A program made the position numbers and the translations under genes. From Mobula birostris (Eukaryota), in NCBI RefSeq assembly GCF_030028105.1, contig NC_092374.1:197279345-197343344 (forward strand): a stretch of DNA of 64,000 bases. Reading direction: 5' to 3'. The notes beneath the pieces are model-generated. The model ran no database searches and was not told where the DNA came from. It saw only the letters and a program-made list of their open reading frames with translations. Shown one piece after another: positions 9,126 to 55,605 of the stretch. How positions within the stretch are numbered: position 1 is the stretch's first letter; each line of letters starts with the position of its first letter.

Positions 9126-9662
9126 ATGGCTGACAGTGCAGATATGCCCAAGGCGGACTTGCCGTCCGCTGCCGTTGACGCCGTCACTGTATTCGGGCCT
9201 CCTGTCTCTCCGGCGACCTGCATCACGTTACCACCCGTGACCAAGAAGAAAAGTTCCTATCGCCCGGCGCAATCCGGTTCGGCGATGGCCGAGCAGATAC
9301 TGGAGGCGGTAGCCGCCACCAAAGAGCGGCAAACTCCCAAGCTGGGCGCTGTCAAGAAGGTCATCTCGGCAGCCGGCTACGGCGCGGAGAAAACGGTTGC
9401 TCCGCCTGGACAGTCGGCGAAGTCGTACGCCAGCAAAGACTCGGCGCAATGTGGCGCGGAGGGTAGCCTGGCAACCTCGTCACAACAAAAGGTTGATGGG
9501 GCCTCCCGAGAGAAGTCACAGGCCAGGAAAAGGCCGGCCAAAAACACACGCAAAAATGCCAAAGGGCGAAAAAAGGCTGAAAAGTTGACGCCGATGCTGA
9601 GAAGACCACGAAAACGCCGTGCCGTGTCCAGGACTGTGAGGGGCAGGGCTCGAAGAAAGTAG
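9126..9662 (+). CDS. Divergent histone H1-like protein (178 aa) with Arg-rich C-tail
   Basis: Intronless GC-rich ORF MADSADMPK... with H1 helix 1/2 motif AEQILEAVAATKER...VKKVISAAGY. TATAA lies near 9071 and a histone-type stem-loop is at 9688-9703. Confidence 0.8.
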   Translation: MADSADMPKADLPSAAVDAVTVFGPPVSPATCITLPPVTKKKSSYRPAQSGSAMAEQILEAVAATKERQTPKLGAVKKVISAAGYGAEKTVAPPGQSAKSYASKDSAQCGAEGSLATSSQQKVDGASREKSQARKRPAKNTRKNAKGRKKAEKLTPMLRRPRKRRAVSRTVRGRARRK

Positions 9663-9687
9663 ACGTCAAGTCAACATCGATGCCAAC

Positions 9688-9703
9688 GGTTCTTGTCAGG
9701 ACC
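9688..9703 (+). terminator. Histone mRNA 3' stem-loop (variant loop TGTC)
   Basis: GGTTCT-TGTC-AGGACC, 25 nt after the stop and preceded by CCAAC. Confidence 0.7.
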
Positions 9704-10319
9704 TCGCAATTTTACTTTTAAAAGCCGTTTCTCATTAATTTTCACTGGAGCCTGATTAATTATGGAATTTATCTTAGCAAAGTACTAGCAAGTTTAATTT
9801 ACTTAAAAATAGGTTGCTGCAATAAACCTAAGATGATGCTCCTTAACGTGTAAGAGTATTTCTGATTTTATTGGGTGGTTGTGTACATTCTGACATCTCA
9901 GAAAACCAATACATAATAGAAGTGAGATCAAAATCACAACAACGTTTTCAAACATTTTGTTTCAATTTCCATCGGTTATACAGTGCACATTTAAAATAGA
10001 TCAGAATGAGGAAAATGCTACGTATACGGGAATCAAAATATCAAACAGGATTGGAAGGGGGGAATACCATTCGAGTGATATAAATTATCATTTAAAATTG
10101 ATGTCTACAATGTCAATTCACACTTGAAATCTGGAAAGGTAAATCATTTTTTAAAAGTTGGGAGTTCTGTGAATGCTTTCCTGAGCATTTTAAAAGCAAA
10201 ATTAATATTCCGTAGTGGGCGAGATGCTACGCTGACGCGAACAAGACGCTACTCGCCGCTGATTGGAGCGCGCCTCCAAATGAAACCGCAAAAGACAATT
10301 GGCTTAAATTTGGATATTA

Positions 10320-10510
10320 GCCAATAGAAACATCTGATGGCTGAATCCTTCATTAGCATGAAACAGCCTACAACTAGCATAACAACGACCTTTTGTTGAA
10401 GTCAGCAGTATGTGGGGGCTGTAGAAGGTGACGGTGAAGGGTATCGTGTCTAGAAAGGCATCGAAGCAGTCAACAAAGTCATCAAAAACTTTGAAAGAAA
10501 AGATATACAG
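10320..10510 (+). pseudogene. Relic of H2B promoter and 5' coding end
   Basis: CCAAT (10321) and octamer-like CATTAGCAT are present. The leader AAGTCAGCAG matches the H2B leaders at 50330/52052. ATG 10410 is followed by an early TAG, then KGIVSRKASKQSTKSSK. Confidence 0.45.
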
Positions 10511-10639
10511 AGCGCTGTCTCAGGTTCCAGCTCTCTGGCATTACCTGCAATTTCAAAGAATTTGTTAAAATCTGTTGCAGACATAATGAAATGAAATATT
10601 GGATTACCATCCTTCCCTAAATCTCCCATCTACACTTCA

Positions 10640-10890
10640 CTCATTGCAAATGGAATGTTAGCATTCATTTCAAGAGCTCTAGAATACAGGAGCAGGGATG
10701 TGATGCTAAGGCTTTATGAGACACTGGTGAGGCCTCACCTTGAGTATTGTGAACAGTTTTGGGCTCCTCATCTAAAGAGATGTGCTGGCATTGAAGAGGG
10801 TTCAGAGGAGGTTCACAAGGATGATTCTGGGTTACACGAGGAATTTTGATGGCTCTGGATCTGTACTCGCTGGAATTTAGAAGGATAAGG
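10640..10890 (+). mobile_element. CR1 LINE fragment
   Basis: MLAFISR...LVRPHLEYCEQFWAP. Confidence 0.85.
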
Positions 10891-11954
10891 GAATCAGAAT
10901 TAGGTTTATTTTCACCGTCATGTGTCGTGAAATTTGTTAACTTAATAGCAGCAATTCAATGTAATACATAATACATTATAGAAGAAAAAAATAAATAAAA
11001 TAATAATAAATAAGAAAATCAATTAAATAAATTAAAAATCATGCAAAAACAGAAATAATATATATTTAAAAAGTGAGGTAGTGTTCATGGGTTCAAAGTC
11101 CATTTAGGAATTGGATGGCAGAGGGGAAGGAGCTTTTCCTGAATCACTGAGTGTGTGCCTTCCTGCTTCTGTACCTCCTACCTGATGGTAACAGTGAGAA
11201 AAGGGCATGTCCTGGGTGCTGGAGGTCCTTAACAATCGATGCTGCCTTTCTGAGATAAGGCTCCTTGAAGATATCCTGGGTACTTTGTAGGCTAGTACCC
11301 AAGATGGAGCCGACTAAATTTACGACCCTCTGCAACTTCTTTCAGTCCTATGCAATAGCCGCCCACACAAACACAGCCCCTCCCCACCCAATACCAGACA
11401 GTGGTGCAGCCGGTAAGAATGCTCTCCACGGTATATCAGGGTGGTGAATTTGTGGAATTTGTTACCACAGGCAGCTGTGGATGTCGTTGGGTTTATTTAA
11501 GGCAAAGATTGATACGTTTTTGATTGGATAAAGCATCAAAGGCCTTGACCACTAAAATCTGATCTTTTGGACGCATAATATCCTACCAGCCTGAAAAGAC
11601 TGTCATCTGTGATATAAGCACTCAGTTGGATTAGCACATGAAGGCTGGTATAGAACTGAAGCTCTTTATTGTTTACTGGTATTTGTCTCAGTCAGCTTAG
11701 TCTCCTACTACCCCGAAAACTTCCCAGTGCTGTACTTACTGTACTTTCTCATTTTATAAATCAGAGGTGTAAATGAATTACTGCTGCAATGCATTATTTT
11801 AGTAACTAATAAGAGACACACTTCAGTCAAAGTCAATTGTGCACGAATTCTCCAAGGATGTGGATAGTCCGCAGACGGAGGTGCCATGAGAATGATCGAT
11901 TCTGATTGGACCGAATCACTATGCATAGTGCTTTGAAGATGAAGAATAGCAACA

Positions 11955-12450
11955 GAAACTAGCCTATTTAACAGACAGTTTTCATCATATGAACCAGTTA
12001 AACAAGTCTCTGCAAGGCCCTGGAGAAAATGTTTTCACTTCAAGTGACAGAATTCCTGGATTTAAAAGGAAACTCAATTTTTTGAAAGAACATATTGCGA
12101 AAGAAAATCTTGAAATGTTTCCACTGCTGCTTGGGTTTGAGAGTGAGGAAGGATTAGAAAGTCTCGAGTCTGATTGAAAACCTCCAAGATATGTAGAACA
12201 AAATTGAGCAGTACTTTTCCTCCCTTTCAACATAAGTATGACTGGGTGAGGGAATCTTCCGAGAACTGTGCTTCTGCTGTTTTCTTGTTGACCAAGCAAC
12301 AAGAGCAAGGATACAGATTGTCTCATTTCAGTTGAAGGTGAAATCCGCCTGTGCTTATCTCAGGTTCGACCCAGAACTGCGTATTTGTGCAGCAAAAAGT
12401 AGATTTCACATGCTAGGCCTATATGTGAACCTGATCATGTCACTTAGTAA
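11955..12450 (+). mobile_element. hAT (Charlie-like) transposase C-terminal fragment
   Basis: LAYLTD-F-HMNQLNKSLQG...FKRKL...LEMFP motif of hAT transposases. Confidence 0.7.
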
Positions 12451-12940
12451 GAAAGTTCTTTCAGTCTCGCACAAAATTGTCTTAGGCTATATTTTCATTC
12501 ATATTGCCTTGGTTTATGGCTTTTAGTAACCTTACTATTCAATGTTGTCAATACATTTTCATAATCAAAATCAATTTACAACCTTAATCTACCTTTAGAA
12601 AGAATTAAATTCCATTTTGCTTTAATAGTTATTTAACAGAAATCTGTTTGCCTTATTAGTTTTTAAATCTTATGAAAGGGGAGGATTAATTTCAAGGTAA
12701 ACTAAGCTTAAGTACGTTTTTTCAAGGTCGGCTAATAATTTCTTCTCTACTCAAAAGCATTGACAATAAATTTCGGATTATTTTATGTACAATTTACGTA
12801 CCAAGAGCTGTTTTTTTTTAAACGCAGGGGTTCCTCCCGGGCAAAAAGGTTGAGAAAGTTTACACTTTAGATTAGAATGATAAACAGCGGCAAGATTGAT
12901 CAACTTCGTATTACAGCAACTTTCGTCTCAAGAGTTCGGC

Positions 12941-12956
12941 GGCTCTTAAAAGAGCC
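12941..12956 (-). terminator. Histone 3' stem-loop of H3
   Basis: GGCTCTTTTAAGAGCC on the minus strand. Confidence 0.95.
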
Positions 12957-12987: not shown

Positions 12988-13407
<420 letters not shown>

Positions 13408-14992: not shown

Positions 14993-15590
<598 letters not shown>

Positions 15591-19844: not shown

Positions 19845-19860
19845 GGCCCTGAAAAGAGCC
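19845..19860 (-). terminator. Histone 3' stem-loop of divergent H2B
   Basis: GGCTCTTTTCAGGGCC on the minus strand. Confidence 0.92.
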
Positions 19861-19889: not shown

Positions 19890-20261
19890 TTATTTGCAGC
19901 TCATGTACGTTGTAACTGCCTTTGTTTCTTCGGGGATGGCGTGCTTCTCCCGCAGCAGCAGGCGGACGGTGGTCTGGATTTCCCGGAATGAAATGGTGTG
20001 CCGTTTGCTATATCGGACGAGGTGGGAAGCCTCACAGGCGATGCACTCGAAGATGTCATTGACAAATGAGTTAATGATGCTCATGGCCGAAGAAGAAATG
20101 CCTGTGCCCGGGTGAACCTGCTTCAATACTTTGTAGATGTAGATGCTGTAACTCTGTTTCCTCGCCATTTTACGTTTCTTTTCACCTTTCATTCGCTTTT
20201 TAGTGGCTGCTCTCTTTGGCCCCTTTTTAAGCGCTACACCCTCAGAGCTCACTTCAGGCAT
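19890..20261 (-). pseudogene. H2B: Divergent H2B with open ORF (123 aa), probably non-functional
   Basis: MPEVSS...[15 protein letters not shown] is H2B. It has a 3-aa deletion in [10 protein letters not shown], many CpG-type changes, and a promoter displaced by a LINE. Confidence 0.75.
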
Positions 20262-20287: not shown

Positions 20288-22869
20288 CTTCTTCTTCTTT
20301 TATGGCGGTTGGCACCCAGCTTAATGGTGCATTACCGCCACCTTCTGCTCCGGTGTGTGCAATAGACTTATATTCTAAATCCCTTTACCAAATCACACAC
20401 ACACACACATACCCTAACCTACGCCTTATCCTTCCATCTTTGACCATCCTAGTACCCTATTCCTGTTTATCCGTCATATCCTATAAAAAAATCCCTGTAC
20501 CCCTTAAGAAAGCTAAAAATACCCCAACTTTTGCTCTCTCACTCATGCCCAGCAACCCTTTTAATGTGAATTCCTGCATCCCCAACTCCCTGAGATTGAT
20601 TATCATCATCTCTCTCTGTATCCCATACTTTCTGCAACTCAGAACTACATGTTCTACTGACTCCTCTTCCTGACATTCCTCACACAATCCTGTCTGGTGT
20701 TTCCCTATCATTTTCAATGTTTTGTTTAATGCACAGTGCCCCAGCCTTAACCTAGTCCACACAGTTTCCTCTCTTCTGTATCCACTACCTACCCTAGTAC
20801 CTTCAACATTCTTTTGTATTTGATATAAATGCCTCCCTTTCCCCTCCCTGTCCCATCTTTCTTGCCACATTTGGTTGATTTTTTCCCAGATTACACACTT
20901 AACCCCTGCTTTACTGATACTAATGTGCATTTCCACATTTTCTTTCTTTAACGTCCTCTTTGCTACCTAATCCACTCTCTCATTCCCCTTCACCCCTACG
21001 TGTGCTGGAACCCATAGAAATTTTACCTGACCTCCCTGATTTGTAATTCTTGTGACTGACTGAAGGACTTCATAAAGTACATCTTGCCGACTGTTTGAGT
21101 GAAAAGACCTTAAACTTGCTAGGACTGAGGATGAATCTGAACATATCAACACTTTGACTTGTCTAGCTTTCTCCACCCATCGCAACGCAGCCAACACTGC
21201 CAGCATCTCCACTGTAAACACCCCTAATTTATTAGGTGTTCTTCTGCTGATTCCAATTTCTTTTGCTGATATAGCCACCCAAAACCATGTCACTCCTGTT
21301 TCAGGTTCCTTCGCACCATCCATATAAATGTGAATATAATCACTATACTTATCCATCACATGACAGTTAAATGCACTTACCAAATCAGTTTCATATTTTC
21401 CTTTCCTTTTTACCTCTAACAAATGCCAGTCTATGTCAGGCCATACAAGCTTCCATGGAGCTACAACCGGATAAACTACTGAAGGACTTATCCTCAGATC
21501 AAACACTCCACATTCTTTAGCAATATCATTCCCTACCCGACTTAAGTTATCCCTTTGAAACCTCCCATTATCCCAGCACTCCTGCAACACTCCTTTTGCA
21601 GGGTGAGAATCATTGTATCCCTGCAAATTCGCCCAGTAGTTTGCCATCAATTGCATCCTTCTTAGTTCCAAAGGCATTACTCCCATTTCTACCTGTAGGG
21701 CTGACACTGGTGACGTTTTAAAAGCCCCACTGCACACTCTCAAAGCCTGAGCCTGAATTACATCCAGTTTCCTTTTAAGAGACCTAGCTGCTGATCCATA
21801 TACTATATTTCCATAATCCAATACAGATCTCACTAAAGCCACATACATTCTCTTCAACGCTGAACAACTTGCTCCCCATTCCCTCCCGGTCAAACATCTC
21901 ATCATATTTATTACTTTTTTACATTTCTCCTCAACTTTCCTGATATGGTCTGCCCATGTTAATCGTGAATCAAATACAACTCCCAGAAATTTTCTAATTC
22001 AATCCCATACATCTTTAACATCTTTAACTTCTTCCCTACCTCAATTCTTTTCCTGGCGAAAAATACAGTTTGAGTTTTTTTCTACCGAAAATCTACATCC
22101 CCAATCATAACCCCACTCCACCACTTCATCAATTTCTCCTTGTAGTTTCCTGATTATATGGTCCATGTTCCTGCCTCTTTTCCACAAGGTCCCATCATCC
22201 GCAAACAGTGACCTACCTATATCCACTGGTACCTTTGTGAAGACATCATTGATCATAATGATGAAAAGTATCGGGCTAATCACACTACCTTGAGGTGTGC
22301 CATTTTCCACTATGTACTGTTTTGATAATTCTGATCCGATCTGAACTTGAATTTTTCTACCAAACAAAAAATCTTTAATCCAATTAAAAACTCTCCCACC
22401 AACCCCCGTCTTGTGCAGTTTAATTAATAATCCACATCATATCATAGGCGTTTTCAATGTCAAAGAACACTGCCACTACTGACTCTCTATTTGCCTGGGC
22501 CTTCCTTATTTCAGTCTCTAACATAATCACTGAGTCCATGGAATTCCTTCCCTTTCTAAAACCACTCTGGTAATTTGCCAGCATTCCCCTTTACTCAAGC
22601 TCATTCGATAACCTTTCTGTTATCATCCTTTCCATTATCTTACATATATTTGATGTTAATGCAATTGGTCTGTAGCTCGTGGGTTTTGATGGATCTTTGC
22701 TAGGCTTCCTTATTGGAATTACTACTGCTTCTTTCCATGCACTTGGTAATCTTCCCTCCTCCCACACTCTGTTATAAAAATGCAGCAACTTCAAGAGCAC
22801 TCCTTCTCCTAGATTTTTTTTAGCATCACAGAGCATATCAGATCTTTCCCTGGGGAGGTTGGTCTCGAC
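20288..22869 (-). mobile_element. 5'-truncated RNase H-containing LINE (I group, Nimb/Ingi-like)
   Basis: RT motifs YRPIALTS, GTPQGSVISP and LFADD; RNase H motifs CSDS and WVPAHVGVKGNE; CCHC knuckle CEEC..HV..C. The 3' end has a GGCGGT..CCGCC hairpin and a (GAA)n tail. Confidence 0.92.
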
Positions 22870-23045
22870 CTCTCGCGGGAGCTCCTTTTATTAGTTCACC
22901 ATATGCAAATTAGGAATAGGAAAGTGAAGGATTTCTATTGGTTCCTGGCTCCTGTTTTGTCGCAGCCATTGACAGTTGGGAAACAATTGGTGCCAATTGG
23001 CCAATCAGGGTCAACGAATGTTTTTTTTCTCTATTTAAATAACTT
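22870..23045 (-). promoter_or_regulatory. Displaced H2B promoter
   Basis: On the minus strand: CCAAT 22937-22941, octamer 22903-22910 and TATA-like AATAAAAG 22885-22892. Opposite-facing CCAAT boxes lie at about 22985-23006. Confidence 0.75.
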
Positions 23046-27879: not shown

Positions 27880-28540
27880 GAAGACACACAGTCCTCTTTT
27901 ATTGTAATTTAGTAATGCATGCATTAAGAAAAGATACAATGTTCCTCCAGTGTGAAATAACAGAAACACAAGACAGACCAAGACTGAAAAACTGACAAAA
28001 CCACATAATTATAACACAGAGTTACAACAGTGCAAGCAATCCTGTAATTTGATAAAAACAGACCATGGGCACGGTAAAAAAATAGTCTCAAAGTCTCTCA
28101 AAAGTCCCAATCTCTCATGCAGACGGTTGAAGGGAGAAACTGTCCCTGCCATGAGCTTCCAGCGCCTCAAACTTGCCGATGCAGCACCCTGGAAGCACCC
28201 GACCACAGTCCGACTCTCAGTCTGTCCGAAAACTTCGAGCCTCCGACCAGCCCTCCGACACCGAGCACCGAGCACCATCTATGCCGAGCGCTTTGACCCC
28301 AGCCCTGGCCGCCAGCAACAGGCAAAGCCGAGGATTTGGGGCCTTCCCTCCGGAAATTCTCGATCGCACAGTAGCAGCGGCAGCGAACCGGGCATTTCAG
28401 AAATTTTCTCCAGATGTTCCTCTGTGCTTCTCACATCCGTCTCCATCAAATCAGGATTGTGCACGGCCCCCTATTTAACAAATACGATATAATTTCACCA
28501 GAGAGGCCGCACGCACTGCGTCGCATCACCATCTTCTCCT
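27880..28540 (-). mobile_element. Unclassified non-autonomous retroposon (GC-rich head, AATAAA tail)
   Basis: The minus strand starts near AGGAGAAGATGG and ends with AATAAAAGAGGACTG. It has no credible ORF. Confidence 0.45.
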
Positions 28541-28544
28541 AATT

Positions 28545-31500
28545 GATAAGGTATATATAGAGTGGTAAGAATTTACTTTAACAGTTAAGCCCTGAAGTAA
28601 AAGAATGGGAAATAGAAACGGTAAGTGTCAGCCCAGGGACTGAAGAGGGACGCCCAGAGGTGGGTGGTCCACCCGGGACCTCCAGCTAACCAAGGCTAAT
28701 GGACAAGAATATGCAAAGAAAGGCTAAAAATTATAAGAAGAGTCAACAACTCCTAGGTGACCCATTGGTTCCCCCAGGTTCACCTGCCAACAAGATTTGG
28801 TTGGAAACAGGGACAGCAGGTACTCTGGAACGCTCTCAAGTGATTTGTGGTGACTGGCCATACGGTGGGTCTTTCAGTCTGAGGAAAATTCAGTACTGGA
28901 AACACAAAACAGAAGTTGGGAAAGGGGATCGAAACTGGGATTTAGAATATATGATGTGGTGTAAACGTAAATGGGAAGAGGCATCAGCCACTTAAAGGTT
29001 AAAGCTGAGAAAGCAGAAAACCTGACCCCCCTCAGAAGGCTCTATATCTTCCTTATCCGGAACTCCCGATGACGTGGAAATAATAGAGACGGTGTGGGCC
29101 TACCTCAGTGTCGTGACCGCCAGCGGCAGAGGCAGCAACAGCTACTGCAAGGGGGGCCAGAATCAGAACAGGGGCAATGGTCAGAGCCACGTGACTCCAG
29201 AACAGATGCTTCAGCTTGGACAGAAGATGGCTCTGCTAGCAGAACTCGATCAAAAGAGGAAGACAAATGACCTGCCTACTCCACAAATCGGGGGTTGGGT
29301 CGGTATCCCAGGTTATGGTGGGAAATGTGCCCATATTAAAAACCCTGGACCCCAGCTGAGGTACGAAACATAACTGAAACCCGCAGAGTGCTACGAAAAC
29401 CAATGGCTCTCCACGACTGGTTGGTCCAGACCTGTCAAATTTTTAACCACTTGCCAGGAGAGATTCAGGCACCTTTAAAAGTAATGTATGGGACCTCGCG
29501 GCAGGGGGTAAGTAGTAGATTTCCGGAGATTTGCAAAGGACTACGAGGGGTCTGGGCCCCCCGGCAGGGCAAAAATGGGATGAGGATGATGGGAATCCCA
29601 CTGTGGAAAGAGACCAGTGGCTAGAAAAGGCAAAGGATGCTATTCTTGCAGGAGCTAGACTGCACAATGAAATTGGAGAAGTCACTAGCAACAGAAAAAA
29701 GAAGAGGTTATTACCAATTTTAATGCGAGATTTAAAGACACCTGGGAGTCCAGTGCGGGAATACCCCTGGCCGGGAATGGCCCGCTGGCTGTACTGACCC
29801 TCCTGAACTGTCTCCAGCCAGAGGTAACACACTCCTTTAAATTGACCAATTTAGAATGGCAGCATAAAGGATTTATTACATCTTCGGGGGAAACCTATAC
29901 AACATGCTTAAGAATTTGTTGCAAGCAGTGCAGTTGCCCAAGCTAATTGCTGCCATTCAGTACGAAGCTCACACTAATGCTTCAGACCCCAATGCCCCGG
30001 GTAATGCAGCCGCCGATACGGCTGCTAACAGGGCCGCCATGGATGAGAGAGCAATGCAAGCACACGTGCAAGTGCGATGCACTCCAATAGCTCCTACTCC
30101 CGCTTTTCAAATCTGGTTGTGGCTCAGGAAGGGGCTCCAGAAAACGCAGGAGAAATCTGGATCATAGGGATCCAGAAGGGGTATGGAGTCATTCTGAGAG
30201 CCACCCTGTATGTCTGAGAAATTTCCTACATGCCCTTGTACGAGTAAGCCACGGGAAAGGTCATGTAGGAAAATGGGGAATTATATATCAAGTACAGCTG
30301 TGGCTCGCACCAGTGGATTGACAACTTAGGCCAGGCAAGTGGAGAGAAGCTGTGAAATAACAGAGGAAAATCACCTGCTAAATTTGATCACTTGCCACTA
30401 GCTGAGGTGCCGTTTGCTAATTTACAGATAGATTTTGTACACATGCCTGCTACTGGGGGTTACCAGTACCTACTAGTAATCGTGGGTATGTTTTCCAAAT
30501 GGGTAGAAGCCTGTCCATCTAGGAAGGATGATACGGGAACTGTGGTAAAGACCTTGATGAAAGAGATCACTCCCAGGTTTGGGGTGCCATAGACATTTGA
30601 TAGTGACCGGGGGACTCACTTTACAATTAAACTAACCAAGGGATTGGGCCAAGCGTAAGGCTTTACTTGGGAGTATCATCTCCCATATCAGGCCCAGTCC
30701 TCAGAATTAGTAGAAAAAATGAATGGAGTATTAAAAGGTACATTAACTAAAGTATGCCAGAAAACTGGGCTAAAGTACTATGATTTTACATACTCTGAGG
30801 AATCAAGTGAATCGGAAATCTAAATTTGGGGCCTCCGTCGGTCAGAGTTGACCATGGGTATTGCGTCTTAGCGGTCTAGATACACAAGCCTGGGCTGTAC
30901 AATATGGAGGGCAACCTGTTGCCCATGTAGCAAGCTCTCCCTCTCCATGTATCAGATCAACACAAAGGTACGGCAGAGACCGATACAGTTTGGTGCTAGC
31001 GGTGTCGCAGGAGTTGCCGGTCAACATTGAACTCAATGCAGGACTACCTCAGGGACTCCAGCTCTGGATTTGTCCCTCAGGGTTTACGCCCAAAGCCTTC
31101 CCCATGAGCGGGTACAGCCACAAGGCAGCGGAGGTTTGAGATCAGAGCTTTTCTTCTAGATGAGCTGCCAACCACGACCAACGAGCACCATCTGCCCAAA
31201 GCGACTGGTTTTAAGGTGCCAGTAACCCACTTTTACCCTTCTTCTATCAGTAGAAACAGTTCTGCCGGGCTTAGTAGCTAAGCCACACGTGAAGGTCAGG
31301 AGTTGGACTTGGTTGTCAGAGGCTATTAGAGGCGCACGCCATTGGAAGCATTTTATAGGCAGTGGGAACTTGTTCCCATTATCACCCCTGGCTATAACAA
31401 CCATAAGGAGCCACAACTAAATTGTGGTTAAATTACGCCATTCTAAGTGTTAATGGGACAATGAAAGCCAGCCGGATCCTGATTATCTTTAACAAGTGCC

Positions 31501-33229
31501 CAAACCTCCCTTGTCTACACCGATGAGAAAAGTGTTGAAATTGTTAATTCTTGGGCAAAGCCACAAGATTGAATCAGGGGCAAGTGGCTGCTGAACTACC
31601 TCAGCCGGGAGAAGAAAATACTCGTCTCTCTAAGCCGGGAGACTATGTGTATGTGAAAATGCTTAAGAAAGGCTCTTTCTTCTAGGTGGAAGGAGCCCTA
31701 TCGGGTGATCCTGGTAACAAGAACTGCAGTGCAGGTGGAAGGGAAGCCCGACTGGATAGACGGAACCAAGTGCAGGTTTTCTTCTCCTGAGGAAAAGAAG
31801 ATGAAAGTCTGACTCAAGAAAGCTTCGTTGTTGACATTCAGACTGTTGAGTGTATTAAATTGGGAACAGCTTATAATACTTACCTAAACTTAGATTATGA
31901 ATATCCTAGTTGGAGTAATGTGCCTAGTTGGGTGTGGATGGCCATACGCACCCATGCTGGGTTAGGAGATAAGGGATATAAGAAGGTGCTGCAAGTTTTG
32001 GATACCACAATGTGGGGCTATAACTACTCTATACATGGCCCCAGATGGGCACAGTCAGGGGGATGGATTGTTTGTGATCTGGGGAAGAAAGGCACGAGGA
32101 ATACTACTGATATGGGTGGAAAGTTCTTTAATACTGTCTGGAATTGGGCTAACAAGGATACACGGAATTCTTATTTCTCCTGTTAACCGAACACAACCCA
32201 TCCCCCTAGACTTACGATGTACAAAACACAGGGTAGCGCCTGTTGGTGCAAGGAGAAGGGAACGCGGGTGGCAGGGAGAAGTGAGTGCGACACCAACAAA
32301 ACTGATTGGACCTGCTCTGCTCCCACTACAACGACCGCTCCTCCCTCGCCAAACAACACCTAGCGGATATGCCGAAGAGGAGAATATCCCTGGTTGCCCG
32401 TTGACTGGTGTGGGTGCTGTATCCAGGGTACGTAGTACCAATTATTCGATTGATAACTCAGCTAGAAGAGCATCCTCCTAGAAGGAGAGTGTGAAACAAA
32501 TACGCAAGTTAGGAGAGGAATTCCATGACTATAATCCTCCTGACAACAGTGGTGCAATACAGACTGATACTGGTATTGAACGTGTGTCCCAGCCTGAACC
32601 CACAGGGATGTTTCCAAAGGTGAAGTTGGAATCCTTTGATCCTGAGTATGAAGATGCTTGTTTAAACATACTGCCTCTGCCCCCAGATTTTGAAGCCCTT
32701 TATCCGGAAGCAGTGAAGCTGATCGGGCGATCAGTCAGGAGGGAACTGTGGCAGACAGTGAAACCTGAGGGCGAAGGGTCGACCGAATCATGGGGGTAGT
32801 GTGATACAAAGTAGAATGGGTCTGTCTTACCTGCACTAACTAAAAACGGATCTTGTGGTTAGTGGGCAGCCGCTGACCTTCTGCCTGGAAGGCCTCAGGA
32901 CTAACGGTTTGTTTCCGTGGTTAATGTGGAACTGGCTGTGTACGTGGGAATCCCAGGTCTAATTTTGTGTAAGGTACGGGAAATCTGCTGATACCTAACA
33001 GGTCTGAATGAGAGCTGTGACCTCTGCAAACTGCTGAATTCCACGTACCCTAATGTATAGAAGACCATGCTTATACTTGCTTCGGCAGAGCCGTAGACCT
33101 TGTAAGGGACAGCTCTCCGTGATCACGTAATGAAGTAATTAAACCGAATACCGGGGTCTGAGTCTTTGTTAAAGTCTGACTGGCGGCTGCAGTTTCCTCT
33201 GACGACTCTCAATCGGCAGTGTTTTTTCA
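28545..33229 (+). mobile_element. Degraded endogenous retrovirus (gag, RNase H, integrase and env remnants, probable 3' LTR)
   Basis: gag start MGN at 28605; RNase H GNAAADTAA; integrase PFANLQIDFVHMP, RFGVP, DSDRGTHF and a GPY-like motif. Env-like YPWLPVDWCGC follows, then a purine tract and a TG...CA segment at about 32800-33229 with ATTAAA. Confidence 0.85.
30827..31416 (-). mobile_element. RTE-type non-coding insertion splitting the ERV integrase
   Basis: The integrase resumes after the insert, with a 7-bp TSD CTAAATT. Family assignment is by resemblance only. Confidence 0.55.
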
Positions 33230-38755: not shown

Positions 38756-39060
38756 ATGACTGTAAGAGGCAAAGATGCTACCGTAAAGTTGTTGAATTAC
38801 CTACTCATCTGCGTCTGGCTTGCCGCGAGGGAATTAGATATATTTCTGACCTTATATATGAGGAAACGTGGTTTCTTGAAAGTTTTATTTTCGAAAATGT
38901 TTTTAGGGGTTCAGTTACCTCCACCGAACATGCCAAATGCAGAACAGTCATTGCAATGCTTGTGTCTGCTTTAAAGTTTAGGCAAAGGCGTTTGGTAGTT
39001 AAAATAACAAATAAAGCAAGAATGCCATTCGTAGAAAGGGTCTTTTTTTTTCAAGAGCTG
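38756..39060 (+). pseudogene. H4: Histone H4 pseudogene
   Basis: MTVRGKD start, then a frameshift to RLACREGIRYISDLIYEET...ENVFRGSVTSTEHAKCRTVIAM. Upstream are a GC box and an H4-type TCAACCAGGTCC element; a degenerate stem-loop is at about 39038-39058. Confidence 0.85.
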
Positions 39061-40173: not shown

Positions 40174-40827
40174 ATGGCAGATTCGGAAGTGGTGGGCACC
40201 GACGTCTCTGCTGCGACGGCCCCGGCACCGCCACCACCTGCTGTCCCGTCTCCTTCCGACGAGGCAGCGGTGCTGGACATTGCGGCGGCCGTGAAAAAGA
40301 AGCGGAGGCAGTACCGGCACAGGAAGTTTGGCTGTACGGTGGCCGAGCATATCATGAAGGCAGTGGCATCCACCAGGGAGCGCCGCCGGGTCTCGGTGGC
40401 CGCTATGAAGAAAGCGCTGTCGCCCAGCGACTATAACTTGGCCCGCAGTAACTCGCGGGTTAGTCGAACTGTGCGCAGCCCGCCCAGCAAAGGACCGCTG
40501 GAGCAAACGGCGGGCTGTGACGCCTTGGGCTCGGCCAAGCTCGGCAACAGTCCGGAGGAAACGACGGCAGCCACCCCCAAGGTGGCCAGGAAGTCCCGAA
40601 GACCGAGGGCAACAGGCAGGAAGAGGTGCCAGCGGGTGAAGAGACTGGACAGGCACCGTAGAAAGTACGGCGCCGTGAAAAAGTCGACCCGCTGGAAAGG
40701 CACCCGGGTGAAGAAAGTGTTGGCGAGCCGCCGGGGCTCGAGAAAGCCCAGGAAGTCTGCGAAGAGCCCATTAGAGTGCGAACCCAACAGATTTGGATCT
40801 GAAACCGACTCCATCCAAACACAATGA
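40174..40827 (+). CDS. Divergent histone H1-like / protamine-like protein (217 aa)
   Basis: Intronless ORF in a CpG island with H1 globular motifs TVAEHIMKAVASTRER..SVAAMKKAL and QTAG..ALGSAKL. The tail is Arg/Lys-rich and AATAAA occurs at 40905 and 40916. Confidence 0.82.
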   Translation: MADSEVVGTDVSAATAPAPPPPAVPSPSDEAAVLDIAAAVKKKRRQYRHRKFGCTVAEHIMKAVASTRERRRVSVAAMKKALSPSDYNLARSNSRVSRTVRSPPSKGPLEQTAGCDALGSAKLGNSPEETTAATPKVARKSRRPRATGRKRCQRVKRLDRHRRKYGAVKKSTRWKGTRVKKVLASRRGSRKPRKSAKSPLECEPNRFGSETDSIQTQ

Positions 40828-43269
40828 CTCAGACAAGAGCTGAAACAGTTTATATTATGTTAACCTGACGTAACCGACATATGTGCTAATGATTTTTTTG
40901 ATCAAATAAAAAGAAAATAAATCGTGTATAGTTGTTTACTTGTGTTTAGAAACACCTAACAAAAATGATTAAGGTTCACTCCACCTCTCCCTTCTCTTTG
41001 CAGACATAAATTATCAAACTTGCTAATTATCGCTTCTCAGTAACCTTACCAATTCTATCTCTACTGCACGTTTCCTGTGACTATAATTTCCCTTTTACTG
41101 CTTGGGTCTTCATTACGAAAGTAGGTTCAAATTAAGGAAAGGAAAATTCAGAACTATTATGAAATGCTTCAACTGAAGGGATTTTAATTTTTTATTGAAT
41201 AAAGAATAAACCAATAGAGGTTTTAAACTCAATCCATGAAAGCTCTTCAGAATAACGCTGAAATTTTCCTTTCCGAAATTGGAACCAACCTTTGTAATGA
41301 AGATTTGAGACTGCAGAAGCTGGAAAACTCGAGCAACACACAAAACGCTAGAGTAACTCAGCAATATAGGCAGCATCTATAGAGGGAAATGGGGAGTCGA
41401 CGTTTCACGCCAAGACCGTGCCGATCAGGATCTCGGCCCAAAACGTCCATTGTCCATTTTCCTCCACAGCTGCTGCCGGATCTGTTCCTCCAACAGTTTT
41501 TTTGTGTGTTGCTGCCTTCATATGATTCAGGTTGAAATATTAAATGTACAATTTCATAAGTTTTCACTGCATTTCAATCTAATATGATTCGTTTATGTTG
41601 AATTTAACAATTTTCTAGACATGTTTAATTATACACGACGCGTTAAGTTCTCAAATTGATTTTTTTTTAACCCGTGTTACCCAGCTGCATCTGCACTCTT
41701 CCAGTAAGAAAGAGTCGCTGATTTAAAATAAGATGGGCAGATTCTGAATTGTGGTCGTACTGTTCCTCCCCCCCCCCATAGAAAAATTTGCCAAGAACAA
41801 TCGTAGTCGTGGAAAGACCATGATCGCCTACGTCATACGAGACGGCAGATACAGTAACGAAAGACGAACAGTTAATAAGTTTCATCAAATCCAGAAGACA
41901 CCCACATCCATACATAAAAGTTGCTTCCATTAGACTTTCGTTTGATCTGCACTATGACCGAGTAAGTTAGAACAAAGCGTTTTGTCCCCGAATATTTTGT
42001 ATCTCGTACAAAGAAATGAGCTGGATATACAAGAGATGTGGATGCTAGCGTCTTGGGGGCGGTTAATAAAAACAAACTGCTTTAGTGCCGCGCCGATTGA
42101 GCAGCATCTGCGGAAGGAAATAGATAATCAACGTTTAGTTAGAAATTAGATGCAGTTTTTATGAACAGGCCACCCGAGTTGGAAAATGGCGGGATTTAGT
42201 CTTGGATATCATGAATGCAGTCAAATTTTGTTCGTGACGAGATCTGATACAGACACGGTCCAAATCAGAGTCCAGGGATGGCTCCTTTATGTTGACACAT
42301 TCGCTTTAGTTGTTGGATACCTGCGGCATATTGCAGAGCCGGCAGGAAAATGTTTCGGGACGTCTTGCTGTAGCCATTCATTGATGCACAACTGCTTTCG
42401 CCTTTCGACCATAAAACCATAAACAACTTAAGCATCGGTCTCCCCAGCGCTGACGTGATTGAACTTGCGGGCGGCTCGAGTTGGTTCATCGTGGCTCCAT
42501 TAAAGGCAGACGGGAACGGTGCTTAAAAAAAAGCTTGATTTGTCAAATGTAGGTCGAAACTTAAAGTGAAATGCGTCGTTTCCGTCAGATCATAACAGCG
42601 AGGATTGTGCTGGGGCAGCTCGCAAGTGTCGCCAGGCTGCCAGCGCCACAACTCACGAATCCTAGCAGTAAGCCTTTGGAGTGTGGGAGCATCCGGAGCG
42701 GTCCAAAGACGAGTATTTTCTACGAACATACAAAAGATGATTCACTTATAAAAATACATACAGTAAGAGGGGGTCACAAAACTAGCAACGATTTCAAATT
42801 AAAATAAAGATCTTCTTCTTCATGTGCCCTGCGCGTTACACGCTTGGGTGATCATGGCTCTCCGCATCGAACGATCCCTCGCAGCGTCAGTGATATCTCG
42901 CACACTTAGTTAGATCTGTTAGTTAAAATAAAAATACTATTTCAGGACATTCAAGCGCTTGCGGGGGCCCATTGCTGACGGAACTTCCCCCTAACCCCGT
43001 GCCCATAGAGACTGCATGCTCCTTATCCAAGTGCTGCCTGGCCGTGCTCGAATCTCGCCCCCAGATACTTCATTTTCTCCAATATAAGAATGAGGGACTT
43101 TATTAATTTAAATTAGTTGTTGTCTGTTTCAATCAAATAAAACTAACCTGGCGCTGCTTTAAGTGTATTGAAAAGTTTAATGTGGACAAAGTGCCTTGTC
43201 TCTTTTAAAAGTTTTTTTTTAAATTTTGAACATATGACATATGTTAGCACATTTAAATAAGATTTTTAG

Positions 43270-48401: not shown

Positions 48402-48972
48402 ATGGCTGCGGGTCAGCAGCCCCGAGGCAGCAAGGCAAAGCGAAAGGAGAATCGCCCACGTCCCGGTAAGGGAATCCGTCGACCGTGGCCGGGCACATCA
48501 TGGACGCTGTCCAATCAACGCCACGGTGTCTCCCTGCTCGCCGTCAAGAAGGCGCTGTCGGCCGCCGGTTACGATGTGCCCCGCATCAATTCACGGGTGA
48601 ATCAAATGGTTCGGAACCTGGTGGCTGATGGCATGTTGGTGCAAACGGCTGGCACGGGGGCCTCGGGTTCTTTCAAGATCAACTGGCAGCTCCAGGTAGT
48701 TAAAGGGGCGGCGGGTAAGTCCTTCCAGACCCGAAAACGTGGTGCGCCCACCTCGAAAGTTAAGGGTGCGGTGCGCAAGCCCTGGAGGAAGAACGCCCTT
48801 CGCAGAGTAAAGCCTATGAACCAAGGCCGGTGCTCATAAGAGACGAACCGGCAAGGCGACAGTTCCCAAGGGTAAACAGCCAGGGAGGTGTCTAAAAATG
48901 CCCCGTCTTCTGACGGTCGGCAACACGGCCGAGAAGAGCAAAGCTCCGAAGCGGAAACATATCCAAGAATGA
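48402..48972 (+). pseudogene. H1-like gene with multiple frameshifts (a 145-aa ORF 48402-48839 remains open)
   Basis: GVSLLAVKKALSAAGYDV...LVQTAGTGASGSFKIN is in frame, but helix 1 (STVAGHIMDAV) and the distal basic tail are in other frames. Confidence 0.8.
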
Positions 48973-48982
48973 ACGCCAAAAC

Positions 48983-50349: not shown

Positions 50350-50760
50350 ATGCCAACTGCTGTTTCAGGTTCTACCAGCGTTACGGCAGGCGGAGGTAAA
50401 GGCGCCGTTTCGAAAAAGGACTCTAAGAAAACTGCTATGAAAATGAGCAAGAAAGGCGATAAGAAGCACAGGAGGAGCAGGAAGGAGAGCTACAGCATCT
50501 ATATCTACAAAGTACTGAAGCAGGTTCACCCAGACACTGGTATTTCTTCCAAGGCTATGAGTGTCATCCACTCATTCGTCAGCGACATCTTCGAGCGTAT
50601 TGCGTCCGAGGCTTCCCGTCTGGTGCATTACACCCGTCGCCAGACCATCTCCTCCCGAGAGATCCAGAGCGCCGTCCGTCTTCTGCTTCCTGCGGAACTG
50701 GCCAAACACGCCGTCTCTGAAGGCACGAAAGCCGTCACCAAATATACCAGCTCCAAGTAG
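50350..50760 (+). CDS. H2B: Histone H2B variant copy 1 (136 aa; TATA and stem-loop damaged)
   Basis: Intact H2B fold. The stem-loop at 50795-50810 reads GGCTGTTTTAAGAGTC. Confidence 0.85.
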
Positions 50761-51929: not shown

Positions 51930-52010
51930 AAGTAACCAATCGGAACGGACAATCTGCCATCCTTCATTTGCATCGTGCTTTGATTATTTGCATAGCTCTG
52001 TATATATAAG
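51930..52010 (+). promoter_or_regulatory. H2B promoter (CCAAT, two octamers, TATA); same layout at about 54290-54365
   Basis: CCAAT 51936, ATTTGCAT 51966-51973 and 51986-51993, TATATATAA 52001-52009. Confidence 0.85.
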
Positions 52011-52071
52011 AGAGAAGCAGCCGATTGCGTGTTACTTGATTTTTGGTGTGTAAGTCAGCAAGAGTTACGCA

Positions 52072-52482
52072 ATGCCAACTGCTGTTTCGGGTTCTACCAG
52101 CGTCACGGCAGTCGGAGGTAAAGGCGCCTTTTTGAAAAAGGGCTCTAAGAAAACTGCTATGAAAATGAGCAGGAAAGGCAGTAGGAAGCGCAGGAGGAGC
52201 AGGAAGGAGAGCTACAGCATCTATATCTACAAAGTACTGAAGCAGGTTCACCCAGACACCGGTATCTCTTCCAAGGCCATGAGTGTCATCCACTCATTTG
52301 TCAGCGACATCTTCGAGCGTATTGCGTCCGAGGCTTCCCGTCTGGTGCATTACACCCGTCGCCAGACCATCTCCTCCCGAGAGGTCCAGAGCGCCGTCCG
52401 TCTTCTGCTTCCTGGGGAACTGGCCAAACACGCCGTCTCTGAAGGCACGAAAGCCGTCACCAAATATACCAGCTCCAAGTAG
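52072..52482 (+). CDS. H2B: Histone H2B variant copy 2 (136 aa)
   Basis: Intact ORF and promoter, with stem-loop GGCTCTTTTAAGAGCC at 52517-52532. Confidence 0.95.
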
Positions 52483-53350
52483 CTTACCCTTGAAAGATGC
52501 GATTAGATCGCCAAACGGCTCTTTTAAGAGCCACTCATCCAGTCCAAACAGCGGCTATACCTACAGTATGAGTAATACATATTTAAGCATCGAGTCCTGG
52601 AGTCAAATAACAGCGCCCGATCAAAGACAAACGATGCAATTTTCTGAAAATTCACGACGGCCAAATGCTATTTAAAAAACTATGCAGTTCCGTCAGTTAA
52701 TAGATAAAAAGCATGCTTTCAAAATGCCTTGCTTTTCGTGCGAATGGTTTCTTTAGGGTCCATTGAACCTCAAGTTAGATCATGCCGTTCCCTCGACAAC
52801 CGGAAAAAAAAGCGGAGCAAGGTATTCACTTATGTTTGCTGAGTGATTTTTATTTACCTGACGTATGATTTAAAATGGATTTGTTGGTATGGAATTTGAA
52901 AAATATCGGTTTTGATTTTATTATTTTATAATATTTATTATGTTATAAATAGCAGTGGACAGGCATGCGCAAAATTAATCGGCTACTGAATTCATTGATG
53001 TCCTCATCCAGGTCCGCTGTCGTATTATGTTACATTGATTCGTAACAGATTTACAATGGGCTGCAATTACTTAACTAGAGAAAGAAAATTTCCGACCAGT
53101 TCCTGCAATTTCGACCTTCTCAATCTTTGCAGAGGGCAAGATTGCCCATATTGCCAGTACAGCCTTCGCAATATTTTGAGCTTGCATTAATTTTAGTAGG
53201 GGGTTTCTGAAGAACTTTAACTGTATTGGTTGGAGAGGCAGTGACGCGAACTGTCACAAATTTAGCAGGGACCGTCTAAAAGAGCACTTAGTCTGTATTG
53301 ATTAGAGAGTTAATGACGCAGACGGAGATTAACTAACTAAATATTTCCAA

Positions 53351-53429
53351 GCAACACACACAAAATGCTGCTGTGTGTGTGTGTTGCTTGAATTTCCAGC
53401 ATCTGCAGATTTCCTCGTGTTTGCGTTTT
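53351..53429. mobile_element. 79-bp Penelope-end fold-back insertion
   Basis: 13-bp TSD TAAATATTTCCAA; the paralogous site at about 51115-51126 is empty. Confidence 0.85.
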
Positions 53430-54427
53430 TAAATATTTCCAATATGTCCCTTCTTCAGAATTCATCATCAGTATCCTCTGCACAGAAGCTACCTGGCCGA
53501 ATCATAAGACACGTTGCGGCCCTTCAGGCGATAAATGACCTGAGTTTGATTGCAACTTCCAAAAGGGATTTGAATAGAGGGAAAAAATGCAGGGAAAGTA
53601 GCATCTATGACAAATTGCAGCACACCATCACAAGCCAGTATCGGCATGTTTGGCCAAAGGGCCGTTGCTTTATGATTCCATATCCCGTAGTCAACTCCAG
53701 CGGGGCGATAAGCAGACAGAGAAGACAATGTACAGTTTTTATTTATTAGGTATTGTCCTTTGTTGTATTTTCTGTCTAAGCAATGTGAATTGGTTACTGT
53801 CGTATCTTTCCATTACGCAGATTTAATTAAAATTCATCGTAAAACAAAGTATTGCAGTTGCTAGATTCTGAAATAAAATAGAAAATGCTGAAAATACTCC
53901 TTTGTTGGTTTGATCTCTTTTGACTTAACTACTCCTTTTTTGCTCCCTTCTTTCTCCTCACCCACAGCCCCCTCACTATTCCTCATCTTATCCCAATTTT
54001 CTCTCCAAACATTCTCAATTCATGAAAAAGGCCATCGATTTAAACAAAACGTTTTCATCCCCCAATCATGAGAAATGTTAGTATCTCCCAATGTTAGTAT
54101 TTCTGTTATTTGTAATGTTAATTCATTGTAAAGATGGTCAGGGGTTGTATTTTCGTCCTAAACATTACCTTAATTTTTCTCTCTCTCTCTCCTGAGATTC
54201 TTTCACACCGAATTTCTTGCAAAGCAAACGCTATCGGGCGGGTGAAGTAGTGACACCAGAGCACGTCCGTTCAGAGGTTTGTACAAAGTAACCAATCGGA
54301 ACGGACAATCTGCCATCCTTCATTTGCATCGTGCTTTGATTATTTGCATAGCTCTGTATATATAAGAGAGAAGCAGCCGATTGCGTATTGCTTGATTTTT
54401 GGTGTGTAAGTCAGCAAGAGTTACACA

Positions 54428-54838
54428 ATGCCAACTACTGTTTCGGGTACTACCAGCGTTACGGCAGGCGGAGGTAAAGGCGCCGTTTCGAAAAAGGGCT
54501 CTAAGAAAACTGCTATGAAAATGAGCAGGAAAGGCGATAAGAAGCACAGGAAGAGCAGGAAGGAGAGCTACAGCATCTATATCTACAAAGTACTGAAGCA
54601 GGTTCACCCAGACACTGGTATTTCTTCCAAGGCCATGAGTGTCATCCACTCATTCGTCAGCGACATCTTCGAGCGTATTGCGTCCGAGGCTTCCCGTCTG
54701 GTGCATTACACCCGTCGTCAGACCATCTCCTCCCGAGAGGTCCAGAGCGCCGTCCGTCTTCTGCTTCCTGGGGAACTGGCCAAACACGCCGTCTCTGAAG
54801 GCACGAAAGCCGTCACCAAATATACCAGCTCCAAGTAG
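54428..54838 (+). CDS. H2B: Histone H2B variant copy 3 (136 aa)
   Basis: Intact ORF and promoter, with stem-loop at 54873-54888. Confidence 0.95.
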
Positions 54839-55605
54839 CTTACCCTTGAGAGATGCGATTAAATCGCCAAACGGCTCTTTTAAGAGCCACTCATCCAGTC
54901 CAAACAGCGGCTATACCTACAGTATGAGTAATAACGTACTCGAGCATCGACTCCTGGAGTCAAACGACAGCGCCTGATCAAAGACAAACAATGCAATTTT
55001 CTGAAAATTCACGACGGCCAAATGCTCTATTCAAAAAACTAGTTCAATGAGTTAATTGATAAAAATCATGCTTTCAAAATGCTTTAATTTTATTTGCTTT
55101 TCCCGCGAATGGTTTCTTTAGGGTCCATTGAACCTCAAGTTAGATCATGCCGTTCCCTCGACAACCGGAAGAAAAAGCGGGGCAAGGTATTCACTCATGT
55201 TTGCCGAGTAATTTTTATTTACCTGACATGATTTAAAACGGATTTGTTATGGAATTTGAAAAATATCGGTTTTGATTTTATTATTTTCTAATATTTATTA
55301 TGTTATAAATAGTGGACAGGCATGCACGAAATTAATCGGCTACTGAATTCATTGGTGTCCTCATCCAGGCCCGCTTTCATATTATGTTACATTGATTCGT
55401 AACAGATTTACAATGGGCTGCAATTACTTAACTAGAGACAAAGAAAATTTCCGACCATTACCTGCAATTTCGTCCCTCAATCTTTGCAGAGGGCGAGATT
55501 GTCCACATTGCCAATACAGTATTTCGATAGAGCGGTTTCGTTTAGTCACAACTGATAAATCTTTAAAATCCTTAGGCGTGTACATTTTGTTTAAACGTGT
55601 CTTAA

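Follow-up and report, generated by a model that had tools for sequence, protein, structure and literature searches.

This locus raises the question of whether a cluster of histone genes without a single canonical member is a chromatin module in its own right or the worn remains of an ordinary array. It lies in a stretch of 64,000 nucleotides from Mobula birostris (contig NC_092374.1, positions 197,279,345 to 197,343,344; hereafter the window), and none of its ten histone loci is canonical, as the original prediction had stated. The block is real, ancient and apparently undescribed, a variant-histone module of elasmobranchs with a probable role in spermatogenesis.

The canonical histone arrays of this genome are found on contigs C33, C34, C9 and C13, and approximately 66 canonical-type H3 genes with equal scores all reside on contigs other than that of the window. 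Every histone gene read at three sites on the MHC contig C6 (193.7, 196.4 and 197.3 Mb) is non-canonical. The block reaches ~27 kb beyond the left end of the window, which adds three H1 genes, including the broken H1f, and exons of valyl-tRNA synthetase follow directly to its left. MHC class I matches are concentrated on C6 (22 of 24, at 174.9-180.2 Mb), and the class II search gave two weak matches only, both on C34. Histone matches were absent from the 100 kb searched to the right of the window and to the left of H1f, searched to 150 kb from the window. These empty flanks, together with intact core orthologues, led us to reject the notion of a graveyard at the edge of a cluster. A search for LSM genes gave no match near the window, where short exons may escape such a search, and the right flank holds a CALHM-like exon rather than LSM2.

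Table 1 Features of the variant-histone block and its surroundings (window positions).
Feature	Position	Strand	Description
H1a	9126..9662	+	Intact, 178 aa, H1-derived; TATA at -55; stem-loop with 2 mismatches, 9688-9703
Variant H3	12988..13398	-	S86I, M90V, A95G, I119V, Q125H; TATA, two CCAAT; perfect stem-loop 12941-12956
Variant H2A	14993..15382	-	TATA, CCAAT, octamer at -201; stem-loop 14925-14970 (Rfam Histone3, 43.6 bits)
H2B-prime	19890..20261	-	Copy, in decay, of the second elasmobranch H2B variant; 3 aa deleted and promoter displaced; intact stem-loop at 19845-19860
LINE with RNase H	20288..22873	-	PF00075; copies in L062, L063 and L096 match at 88-93%
H4 remnant (pseudogene)	38800..38994	+	53% identity over 66 aa, covering only H4 residues 33-98
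H1b	40174..40827	+	217-aa Arg-shifted H1-like ORF; PF00538 27.4 bits; no TATA or stem-loop
H1c	48402..48839	+	Frameshifted, early stop; helix 1 in another frame; perfect stem-loop 48983-48998, 143 nt downstream
Long-tailed H2B E1	50350..50760	+	TATA lost, one of two octamers lost, stem mispaired
Long-tailed H2B E2	52072..52482	+	CCAAT, two octamers, TATA; perfect stem-loop 52517-52532; Arg-shifted tail
Long-tailed H2B E3	54428..54838	+	Full promoter; perfect stem-loop 54873-54888
CALHM-like coding exon	59568..60284	-	PF14798, E 5e-15; right-hand neighbour, outside the module

In general, the window genes display the stem-loops and promoters of replication-dependent histone genes but not their nearly invariant proteins. 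A perfect stem-loop is located 3' of six of the nine open reading frames (H3, H2A, H2B-prime, H1c, E2 and E3), two mismatches are present in those of H1a, which still pairs, and E1, which is mispaired, and H1b has none; one stem-loop attains the Rfam gathering score. TATA and CCAAT elements were found for H3, H2A, E2 and E3, octamers for E1-E3 and H2A, and promoter elements are absent or displaced in H2B-prime, H1b, H1c and E1. The expectation that most intact genes keep both promoter and stem-loop thus holds for H3, H2A, E2, E3 and, with its imperfect stem-loop, H1a, but fails for E1, for H1b and for H2B-prime, where the 3' end of a LINE lies ~25 nt upstream of the ATG.

The variant H3 differs from canonical H3, represented by 18 of 18 identical copies from other contigs, by exactly five substitutions, the number given originally, with a dN/dS against the canonical copies of 0.017-0.020. 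The H2A does carry the odd tail noted before; it ends in GHPSKVYA, a type shared with skate P0159 and with a paralogue at C6:196.425 Mb. Between the window gene and this paralogue, synonymous sites are near saturation (Sd 67/104.6), with just six amino-acid-changing differences (Nd 6/279.4; dN/dS near 0.015). Although the best full-length PDB matches of this protein are H2AX, that identity was rejected because the tail lacks an SQ motif. The description of H4 as dead is correct for the 66-aa remnant in the window but not for C6, where two intact variant H4 genes are located ~0.85 Mb away.

The window encodes two lineages of variant H2B. The three extended copies described originally are each 136 aa long, 12-15 aa beyond the 121-124-aa canonical H2Bs of this genome, and the fourth gene, H2B-prime, which was missing from that description, belongs to a different variant lineage. 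The fold of E3 is identical to those of 11 shark and ray orthologues at 84-90 of 92 positions. Between E2 and E3, the fold has accumulated nonsynonymous changes at 0/206 and synonymous changes at 4/70 sites (Fisher p 0.004), whereas the dN/dS of the three copies over the whole gene is 0.59-0.74. Purifying selection therefore acts on the H2A, the H3 and the fold of the long H2B. H2B-prime in the window matches its orthologues at 97-100 of 123 positions, and those orthologues themselves agree with the sawfish copy at 117-121 of 126. Phylogenetically, the long H2Bs form a clade of 16/16 members (support 99/94, 54-row tree) and the H2B-prime sequences one of 7/7 (98/99, 35-row tree).

Two Arg-rich H1-like reading frames had been announced; the window contains three H1-like loci, of which that at 48402 is frameshifted. 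The arginine share is raised, with R/(K+R) of 0.37-0.58 in the block H1s, or 0.37-0.59 when their orthologues are included, versus ~0.11 in partial canonical H1 reading frames, but total K+R is lower, at 22-29% versus 32-33% in canonical H1. This lower overall basicity was counted against a sperm reading. H1d, H1e and H1b exceed the curated PF00538 cut-off of 22.4 bits (54.3, 57.0 and 27.4 bits, respectively), and H1d matches include teleost 'protamine-like' H1s. H1a has no PF00538 match (0 of 11 family members do), but a profile comparison recovers the H1 globular domain with 99% probability, so its H1 ancestry is clear despite an incomplete winged helix. A structure model of H1a contains one helix only (mean pLDDT 52), compared with three helices and a hairpin in the H1d control (pLDDT 81-92), and a proline inside helix 3 is invariant in the family (12/12). 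The H1a family thus has an eroded winged helix that has lost its recognition helix, and it is nevertheless retained in elasmobranchs. H1b, of uncertain status, has AATAAA signals at 40905 and 40916 and relatives in P0254, P0255 and P0259. Read-through of its stop into a decayed stem-loop was considered and dropped, because the C-ends of these relatives are similar and no stem-loop-like sequence is present.

The block recurs, largely in the same order, in other elasmobranchs. In sawfish, eight named histone genes lie between smx5 and vars1 on chr34, i.e., in the LSM2-VARS1 interval of the MHC class III region, in nearly the order seen in this ray. The same interval on white shark chr19 holds 12 short loci, nine of which fit the order and strand of this ray, gene identity there being assigned from length and strand alone. 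Sequence tracing, which covered the H2A, long H2B, H2B-prime and H1 members, found orthologues of the long H2B in at least 20 other sharks and rays, of H2B-prime in 14 and of H1a in seven named species, and relatives of H1d in seven; in six species several members apparently share one contig. Variant residues and tails are preserved in intact reading frames across sharks and rays. The proposal of a lineage-specific variant module in cartilaginous fish is therefore supported, the lineage being all elasmobranchs sampled rather than one species.

This conservation bears on the reading that the block is merely what is left of a former canonical cluster, orphaned, wearing away slowly and without special function, which we regard as very improbable. 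Decay is evident: H4 is dead, H1c and H1f are broken, H2B-prime and E1 are losing their promoters (E1 is probably decaying as a whole), H1b has no stem-loop, the sister block at C6 196.4 Mb contains broken H2A and H2B, and dN/dS among the E copies is high. Histone copies are thus born and die in this ray. As four to five of the ten window loci, about half, are decaying, part of the apparent divergence (H2B-prime, H4, H1c and E1) reflects recent degeneration. However, a remnant would not be expected to keep identical variant residues and tails across sharks and rays, H2A paralogues so restrained at the protein level, or a gene order largely preserved in sawfish and white shark. Disrupted orthologues and a dN/dS near 1 were looked for as signs of such decay and were absent for the core members. 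The remnant reading is largely refuted for the long H2B, H2A, H1a, H1d and, outside this species, H2B-prime.

What, then, is the set used for? On present evidence, this ancient shark-ray block, a neighbour of the valyl-tRNA synthetase gene on the chromosome that carries the MHC, likely supplies chromatin to the germline, probably to spermatocytes and spermatids. Hints of germline use are the shift towards Arg in the H1 tails and a processed copy derived from the sister H2A. Transcripts from the TATA/CCAAT/octamer promoters, ending at the 3' stem-loops, would be non-polyadenylated and made around premeiotic S phase. Somatic histones could then be replaced by the variant H2A, H2B and H3 together with the H4s of the sister block. 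The resulting nucleosomes would likely be looser, given where the changes fall in H3 (86-90, 119 and 125) and in H2B (the end of alpha2-L2), positions which we take to influence nucleosome stability. The Arg-shifted H1s and the H1a family, devoid of a recognition helix, may function in condensation or transition as largely disordered proteins, and protamines would take over after this H1-derived stage. The ESM clusters nearest to sawfish H1a carry the names protamine-like and spermatid-specific H1 (0.93), although ESM and NCBI protein names are automatic.

The processed copy derives from a paralogue outside the window, the variant H2A at C6 196.4 Mb. It begins ~32 nt past the TATA box and is flanked by a 13-bp target duplication, and it represents one event, now present as five segmental copies that are 99% identical. 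It fits expression in mitotic germ cells or early embryos equally and is not specific to sperm. Canonical-like H2B has likewise left dispersed copies (L108 and L109), and no processed copy of the long H2B was seen in this genome. Dispersed copies of H2B-prime occur in white shark and basking shark.

A conserved variant set could therefore also serve a purpose other than sperm, in the chromatin of oocytes or early embryos, in nucleated erythrocytes or in immune tissue, an explanation we consider less probable. The results on conservation and selection apply to it equally, and the processed H2A requires only germ-cell or early-embryo expression. Mammalian H2B.K and H2B.N are described as ovary-expressed and H2B.1 as expressed in testis and ovary (PMC8857922), and Arg-enriched H5 is described as associated with erythrocytes (PMC11607694). 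Against such uses, the closest look-alikes that carry a name are of testis or sperm type, and a variant set of five classes with an eroded H1 would suit sperm chromatin better.

The long H2B also resembles mammalian H2B.1 (TH2B), as its best PDB matches are H2B type 1-A, ranking after a tandem construct. The block could descend from germline histones that were already linked to the MHC in the ancestor of jawed vertebrates, a set comprising a full alternative nucleosome (H2A, H2B, H3 and H4) and H1s evolving towards a protamine-like state, whose H2B variants would be orthologues of TH2B. This appears improbable. The N-tail patterns MPExxSKG of H2B-prime and KG-x-x-SKKG of the long H2B both occur in H2B.1, and mammalian H2B.1, like the block, sits on the MHC linkage group. 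Furthermore, 12 vertebrate canonical H2Bs group (92/90) without H2B.1 or the shark variants, and uniting the latter two comes at a cost of no more than 2.9 log units (p-AU 0.144 with 35 rows; 0.115 with 31). These two further trees were built from selected rows, with long or redundant ones dropped, among them the H2B-prime of the window; the H2B trees used two metagenomic H2Bs as outgroup and a set without full-length mammalian canonical H2B. Yet H2B.1 and the shark variants are unjoined in all three best trees, and several of their shared fold residues occur in outgroup rows too and may therefore be ancestral. No H2B.1-like tail came from non-mammalian bony vertebrates or chimaeras among the best 120 of 511 matches, or among all 48, and in reedfish no histone entry was found near vars1. 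The block also lacks a head-to-head H2A/H2B pair: its H2A is in tandem with H2B-prime, not divergent from it, and ~35 kb separate this H2A from the closest long H2B. Finally, H2B.1 is reported from eutherians only and dated to ~105 Ma in PMC8857922. Orthology to TH2B is thus unlikely, and an independent origin of the shark-ray set, as originally proposed, seems the more likely reading, although AU tests leave all three of the alternative topologies for H2B standing (35 rows: variants with H2B.1 as above; H2B.1 with bird and tortoise canonical H2B, 0.176; variants with shark canonical H2B, 0.149). If the ancestral set were nonetheless real, the origin of TH2B would shift from ~105 Ma to before the split of sharks and bony fish.

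Mammalian TH2A/TH2B (H2A.1/H2B.1), H1t and H3t are likewise divergent, intronless, cluster-type genes. Unlike these, the shark-ray block is entirely variant, occupies the class III LSM2-VARS1 interval and does not pair H2A and H2B head to head; the long H2B has an N-tail pattern similar to that of H2B.1 but a tail ~9 aa longer and fold residues of its own (VI[N/H] among them). PL-type sperm proteins and spermatid H1s of the H1T2/HILS1 kind share with the block H1s an H1 origin, a shift from Lys to Arg and erosion of the winged helix, and PL precursors without a C-terminal hairpin are noted in PMC11607694. The block H1s differ from protamine-like proteins in their modest K+R content, in replication-type stem-loops (except H1b) and, for H1a, in the invariant helix 3 proline. 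Sea-urchin sperm/late histone sets and the male variants of Oikopleura are also lineage-specific, span several histone classes and include an extended H2B tail, whereas the shark-ray set is from vertebrates, is fixed in order inside the MHC and has an H2B tail without SPKK-type pentapeptide repeats.

RefSeq models of elasmobranchs named 'histone H2B type 1-A-like', 'H2B gonadal-like' and 'H1-like' are the orthologues, named by similarity; examples of orthologues are XP_038671865, XP_038671868, XP_032903201, XP_051899446 and XP_051899491. The sawfish genes appear as rows in the supplement of PMC10751288, but are not discussed in its main text, where 'histone' has 0 occurrences. Our literature search, which did not reach earlier, subscription-only work on the sperm proteins of dogfish, found no paper describing the block, and the text of a catshark testis proteomics paper does not mention histones. 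With this block, the ancestral MHC class III region gains a member that had been overlooked.

Most of what is known about histone variants of the germline comes from mammals, in which they are isolated single genes regarded as young. A variant set of five classes, kept in near-fixed order across sharks and rays, would allow the nucleosome changes favourable to spermatogenesis to be tested independently and on an older system, and the H1a family, as a vertebrate linker histone retained after loss of its DNA-recognition helix, bears on the H1-to-protamine hypothesis. The catshark testis is zonal, and stage-specific expression is therefore directly testable.

The histone block is made only of variants, linked to the MHC, conserved in order and under purifying selection, with birth and death of copies in this ray. 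As originally observed, none of the histone loci located in the window is canonical (0/10; Table). The ordinary arrays lie elsewhere in the genome, with ~66 H3 matches of equal score on contigs C33, C34, C9, C13 and C12, and the canonical protein was identical in 18/18 H3 and 14/14 H4 copies fetched. Relative to it, the window H3 carries S86I, M90V, A95G, I119V and Q125H, the five substitutions counted earlier. A TATA box, a CCAAT box and a perfect stem-loop are present in H3, H2A and the long-tailed H2B copies E2 and E3, the last two with two octamers each.

Table. Histone loci and neighbouring features on C6. The ten window loci (first ten rows) were located by six-frame translation and tblastn with the canonical histones of this genome as queries.
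Feature	Position	Strand	State
H1a	9126-9662	+	TATA; stem-loop with 2 mismatches, still pairing
H3	12988-13398	-	
H2A	14993-15382	-	
H2B-prime (second H2B variant lineage)	19890-20261	-	LINE ~25 nt upstream of ATG; 3-aa deletion
H4 remnant	38800-38994	+	
H1b	40174-40827	+	stem-loop absent; two AATAAA
H1c	48402-48839	+	frameshifted
Long H2B E1	start 50350	+	TATA and one octamer lost; stem mispaired
Long H2B E2	start 52072	+	
Long H2B E3	start 54428	+	
CALHM-like exon	59568-60284	-	right neighbour of block
H1d	L061:1039-1707	-	intact, with stem-loop
H1e	L062:8688-9317	-	intact, with stem-loop
H1f (H1a type)	L063:~3530-4085	-	stop and frameshift
Variant H4, 196.4-Mb block	L092:5936-6247	-	changed at T54; A69S
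Variant H4, 196.4-Mb block	L095:1909-2223	+	changed at T54; A69S
193.7-Mb mini-cluster	L071:8512-8922	+	
193.7-Mb mini-cluster	L072:4007-4384	-	
193.7-Mb mini-cluster	C6:193724903-193725310	-	
LTR-retroelement or provirus-like remnant	~28000-32800	+	degraded
Integrase core match PF00665	30356-30589		E 3.7e-7, below cut-off
CA-rich and CT/CA-rich microsatellites	L066:3290-4650; 58800-59400		long tracts on both sides of block

The window spans C6:197279345-197343344. To its left, the block continues with H1d and H1e, both intact H1 genes, and with H1f, a broken gene of the H1a type, followed by valyl-tRNA synthetase exons whose 5' end faces the histones. The same arm of C6 carries two sister blocks. 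The one at 196.41-196.45 Mb contains a pair of variant H4 genes, both intact, together with a second variant H2A, an Arg-rich H1, two genes of the H1a type and a broken H2A and H2B; H4 variants are rare. The other, at 193.7 Mb, comprises two variant H3 genes and a third H2B variant, which corresponds to three sawfish genes in the order H3-H2B-H3 at 6.16 Mb of chr34. These searches scored the best 150 of 168-203 candidates, so a canonical gene on C6 might have been missed. Most MHC class I matches (22/24) also fall on C6, at 174.9-180.2 Mb, the other two being on a small contig.

Sawfish chr34 is an MHC chromosome, on which the supplement of PMC10751288 gives the order HSP70 x3, smx5, H2B 1-A-like(-), H1(-), H4(-), H2B 8-like(+), H3(+), H2A(-), H2B(-), H1(-), vars1(+) and SAPCD, with a second histone block beyond SAPCD. 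Read towards VARS, the manta block runs long H2B-, H1c-, H1b-, H4-, H2B-prime+, [H2A+, H3+], H1a-, H1d+, H1e+, H1f+. Between smx5 and vars1 on white shark chr19, the same supplement lists 12 short loci, nameless in the sheet (410-, 675-, 735-, 351-, 357+, 411+, 393-, 387-, 654-, 1138+, 627+, 639+); by length and strand only, these fit the manta block in 9/12 slots, the middle three differing. From this synteny we infer that the adjacent synthetase is VARS1, not VARS2. In reedfish, vars1 lies at 57.9 Mb, and rows 20-49 of the 72 for the core-histone cluster fall at 338 Mb. On sawfish chr34 a CALHM6-like gene sits at 6.48 Mb, ~2.2 Mb from the histone block, and the presence of a CALHM-like exon beside the manta block suggests that the region was rearranged locally in this ray.

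Relatives of the long H2B occur in 20 further shark and ray species, and its fold is identical to that of E3 at 84-90/92 positions in 11/11 orthologues compared, with KTAMKM and VI[N/H][15 protein letters not shown] in common. H2B-prime is intact in 14 species and accelerated only in this ray, the H2A tail type also occurs in skates, and relatives were found in 7 species for H1d and 7 named species for H1a (97% in Mobula hypostoma). The orthologue searches gave no chimaera match among the matches listed. Different block members fall on contigs of one and the same length in Heptranchias, Heterodontus, Pristis, Mustelus, Carcharodon and M. hypostoma. Sharks and rays split ~270-300 Ma. The E2 tail (52072-52203) is Arg-shifted and lacks the Ser before KKG typical of most long-H2B orthologues; M. 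hypostoma P0125 has similar changes.

The best named PDB match of the long H2B is H2B type 1-A, the mammalian TH2B (H2B.1), and the tails of the shark variants and H2B.1 look similar. Trees give clades for the long H2B (99/94), for H2B-prime (98/99) and for the shark variants as a whole (88/82), while H2B.1 is placed with canonical H2B (81/76) when rooted on two metagenomic rows; none of the topologies tested was rejected. H2B.1 has been dated to the eutherian ancestor (PMC8857922). We favour convergence from an old MHC-linked cluster over TH2B orthology, which would need many losses.

By the Nei-Gojobori method, the window H3 against four canonical copies gave dN/dS of 0.017-0.020, a figure that includes the canonical branch and is compatible with recent relaxation. 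The window and 193.7-Mb H3s have I119V and a changed residue 125 in common (dS ~0.7). Between the two variant H2As, 67/104.6 synonymous and 6/279.4 nonsynonymous sites differ, and the tail is the same in both. Whole-gene dN/dS of the recent E copies is 0.59-0.74; between E2 and E3, the fold differs at 0/206 nonsynonymous and 4/70 synonymous sites (Fisher p 0.004), and the tail at 10/102 nonsynonymous sites, near the 3' flank rate (9/113).

The linker histone domain PF00538 matched 0/11 H1a family members, whereas the family profile aligned along 84 columns with the H1 globular domain (probability 99%). Proline is invariant at the helix 3 position (12/12), and AlphaFold2 gave H1a one helix (mean pLDDT 52; shallow alignment, low confidence) and the control H1d a winged helix. 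The ESM clusters closest to the sawfish H1a orthologue bear the names protamine-like and spermatid-specific H1 (0.93), which is a lead and no more. The H1s of the block are Arg-shifted, yet their overall basicity is below that of canonical H1.

Stem-loop mRNAs produced at about premeiotic S phase could supply variant nucleosomes, which would be easier to remodel, presumably because the changed residues have structural roles. Arg-shifted or helix-less H1s might then help condense spermatid chromatin (for H1-to-protamine background, see PMC11607694). No description of the block was found in the literature searched, and papers and supplements beyond that search may bear on it.

Five C17 loci (L099-L103, 1.7-24.0 Mb) are copies of the 196.4-Mb variant H2A and represent one insertion, since the segments, with a tandem repeat array inside, are 99% identical over ~5 kb. 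Relative to the parent gene, the copy begins ~32 nt downstream of the TATA box and breaks off within the 3' UTR, short of the stem-loop; a 13-bp target duplication flanks it, and its reading frame remains open despite two in-frame deletions. Such a processed copy indicates, from its sequence, that the variant H2A was probably transcribed in cells passing DNA on, spermatocytes not being specifically implied. Canonical-like H2B has dispersed copies in this genome too. In white and basking shark, many different contigs carry H2B-prime copies (P0011, P0189-P0195, P0267-P0278), a scatter not seen in most other sharks listed; the copies on 7 contigs of white shark and 9 of basking shark may, like the H2A copy, be processed ones.

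Within the window, the integrase core match lies inside the LTR-retroelement or provirus-like remnant. The 100 kb to the right (L053-L060) are highly repetitive, possibly through tandem duplication, with self-matches of up to 99% in L054-L056.
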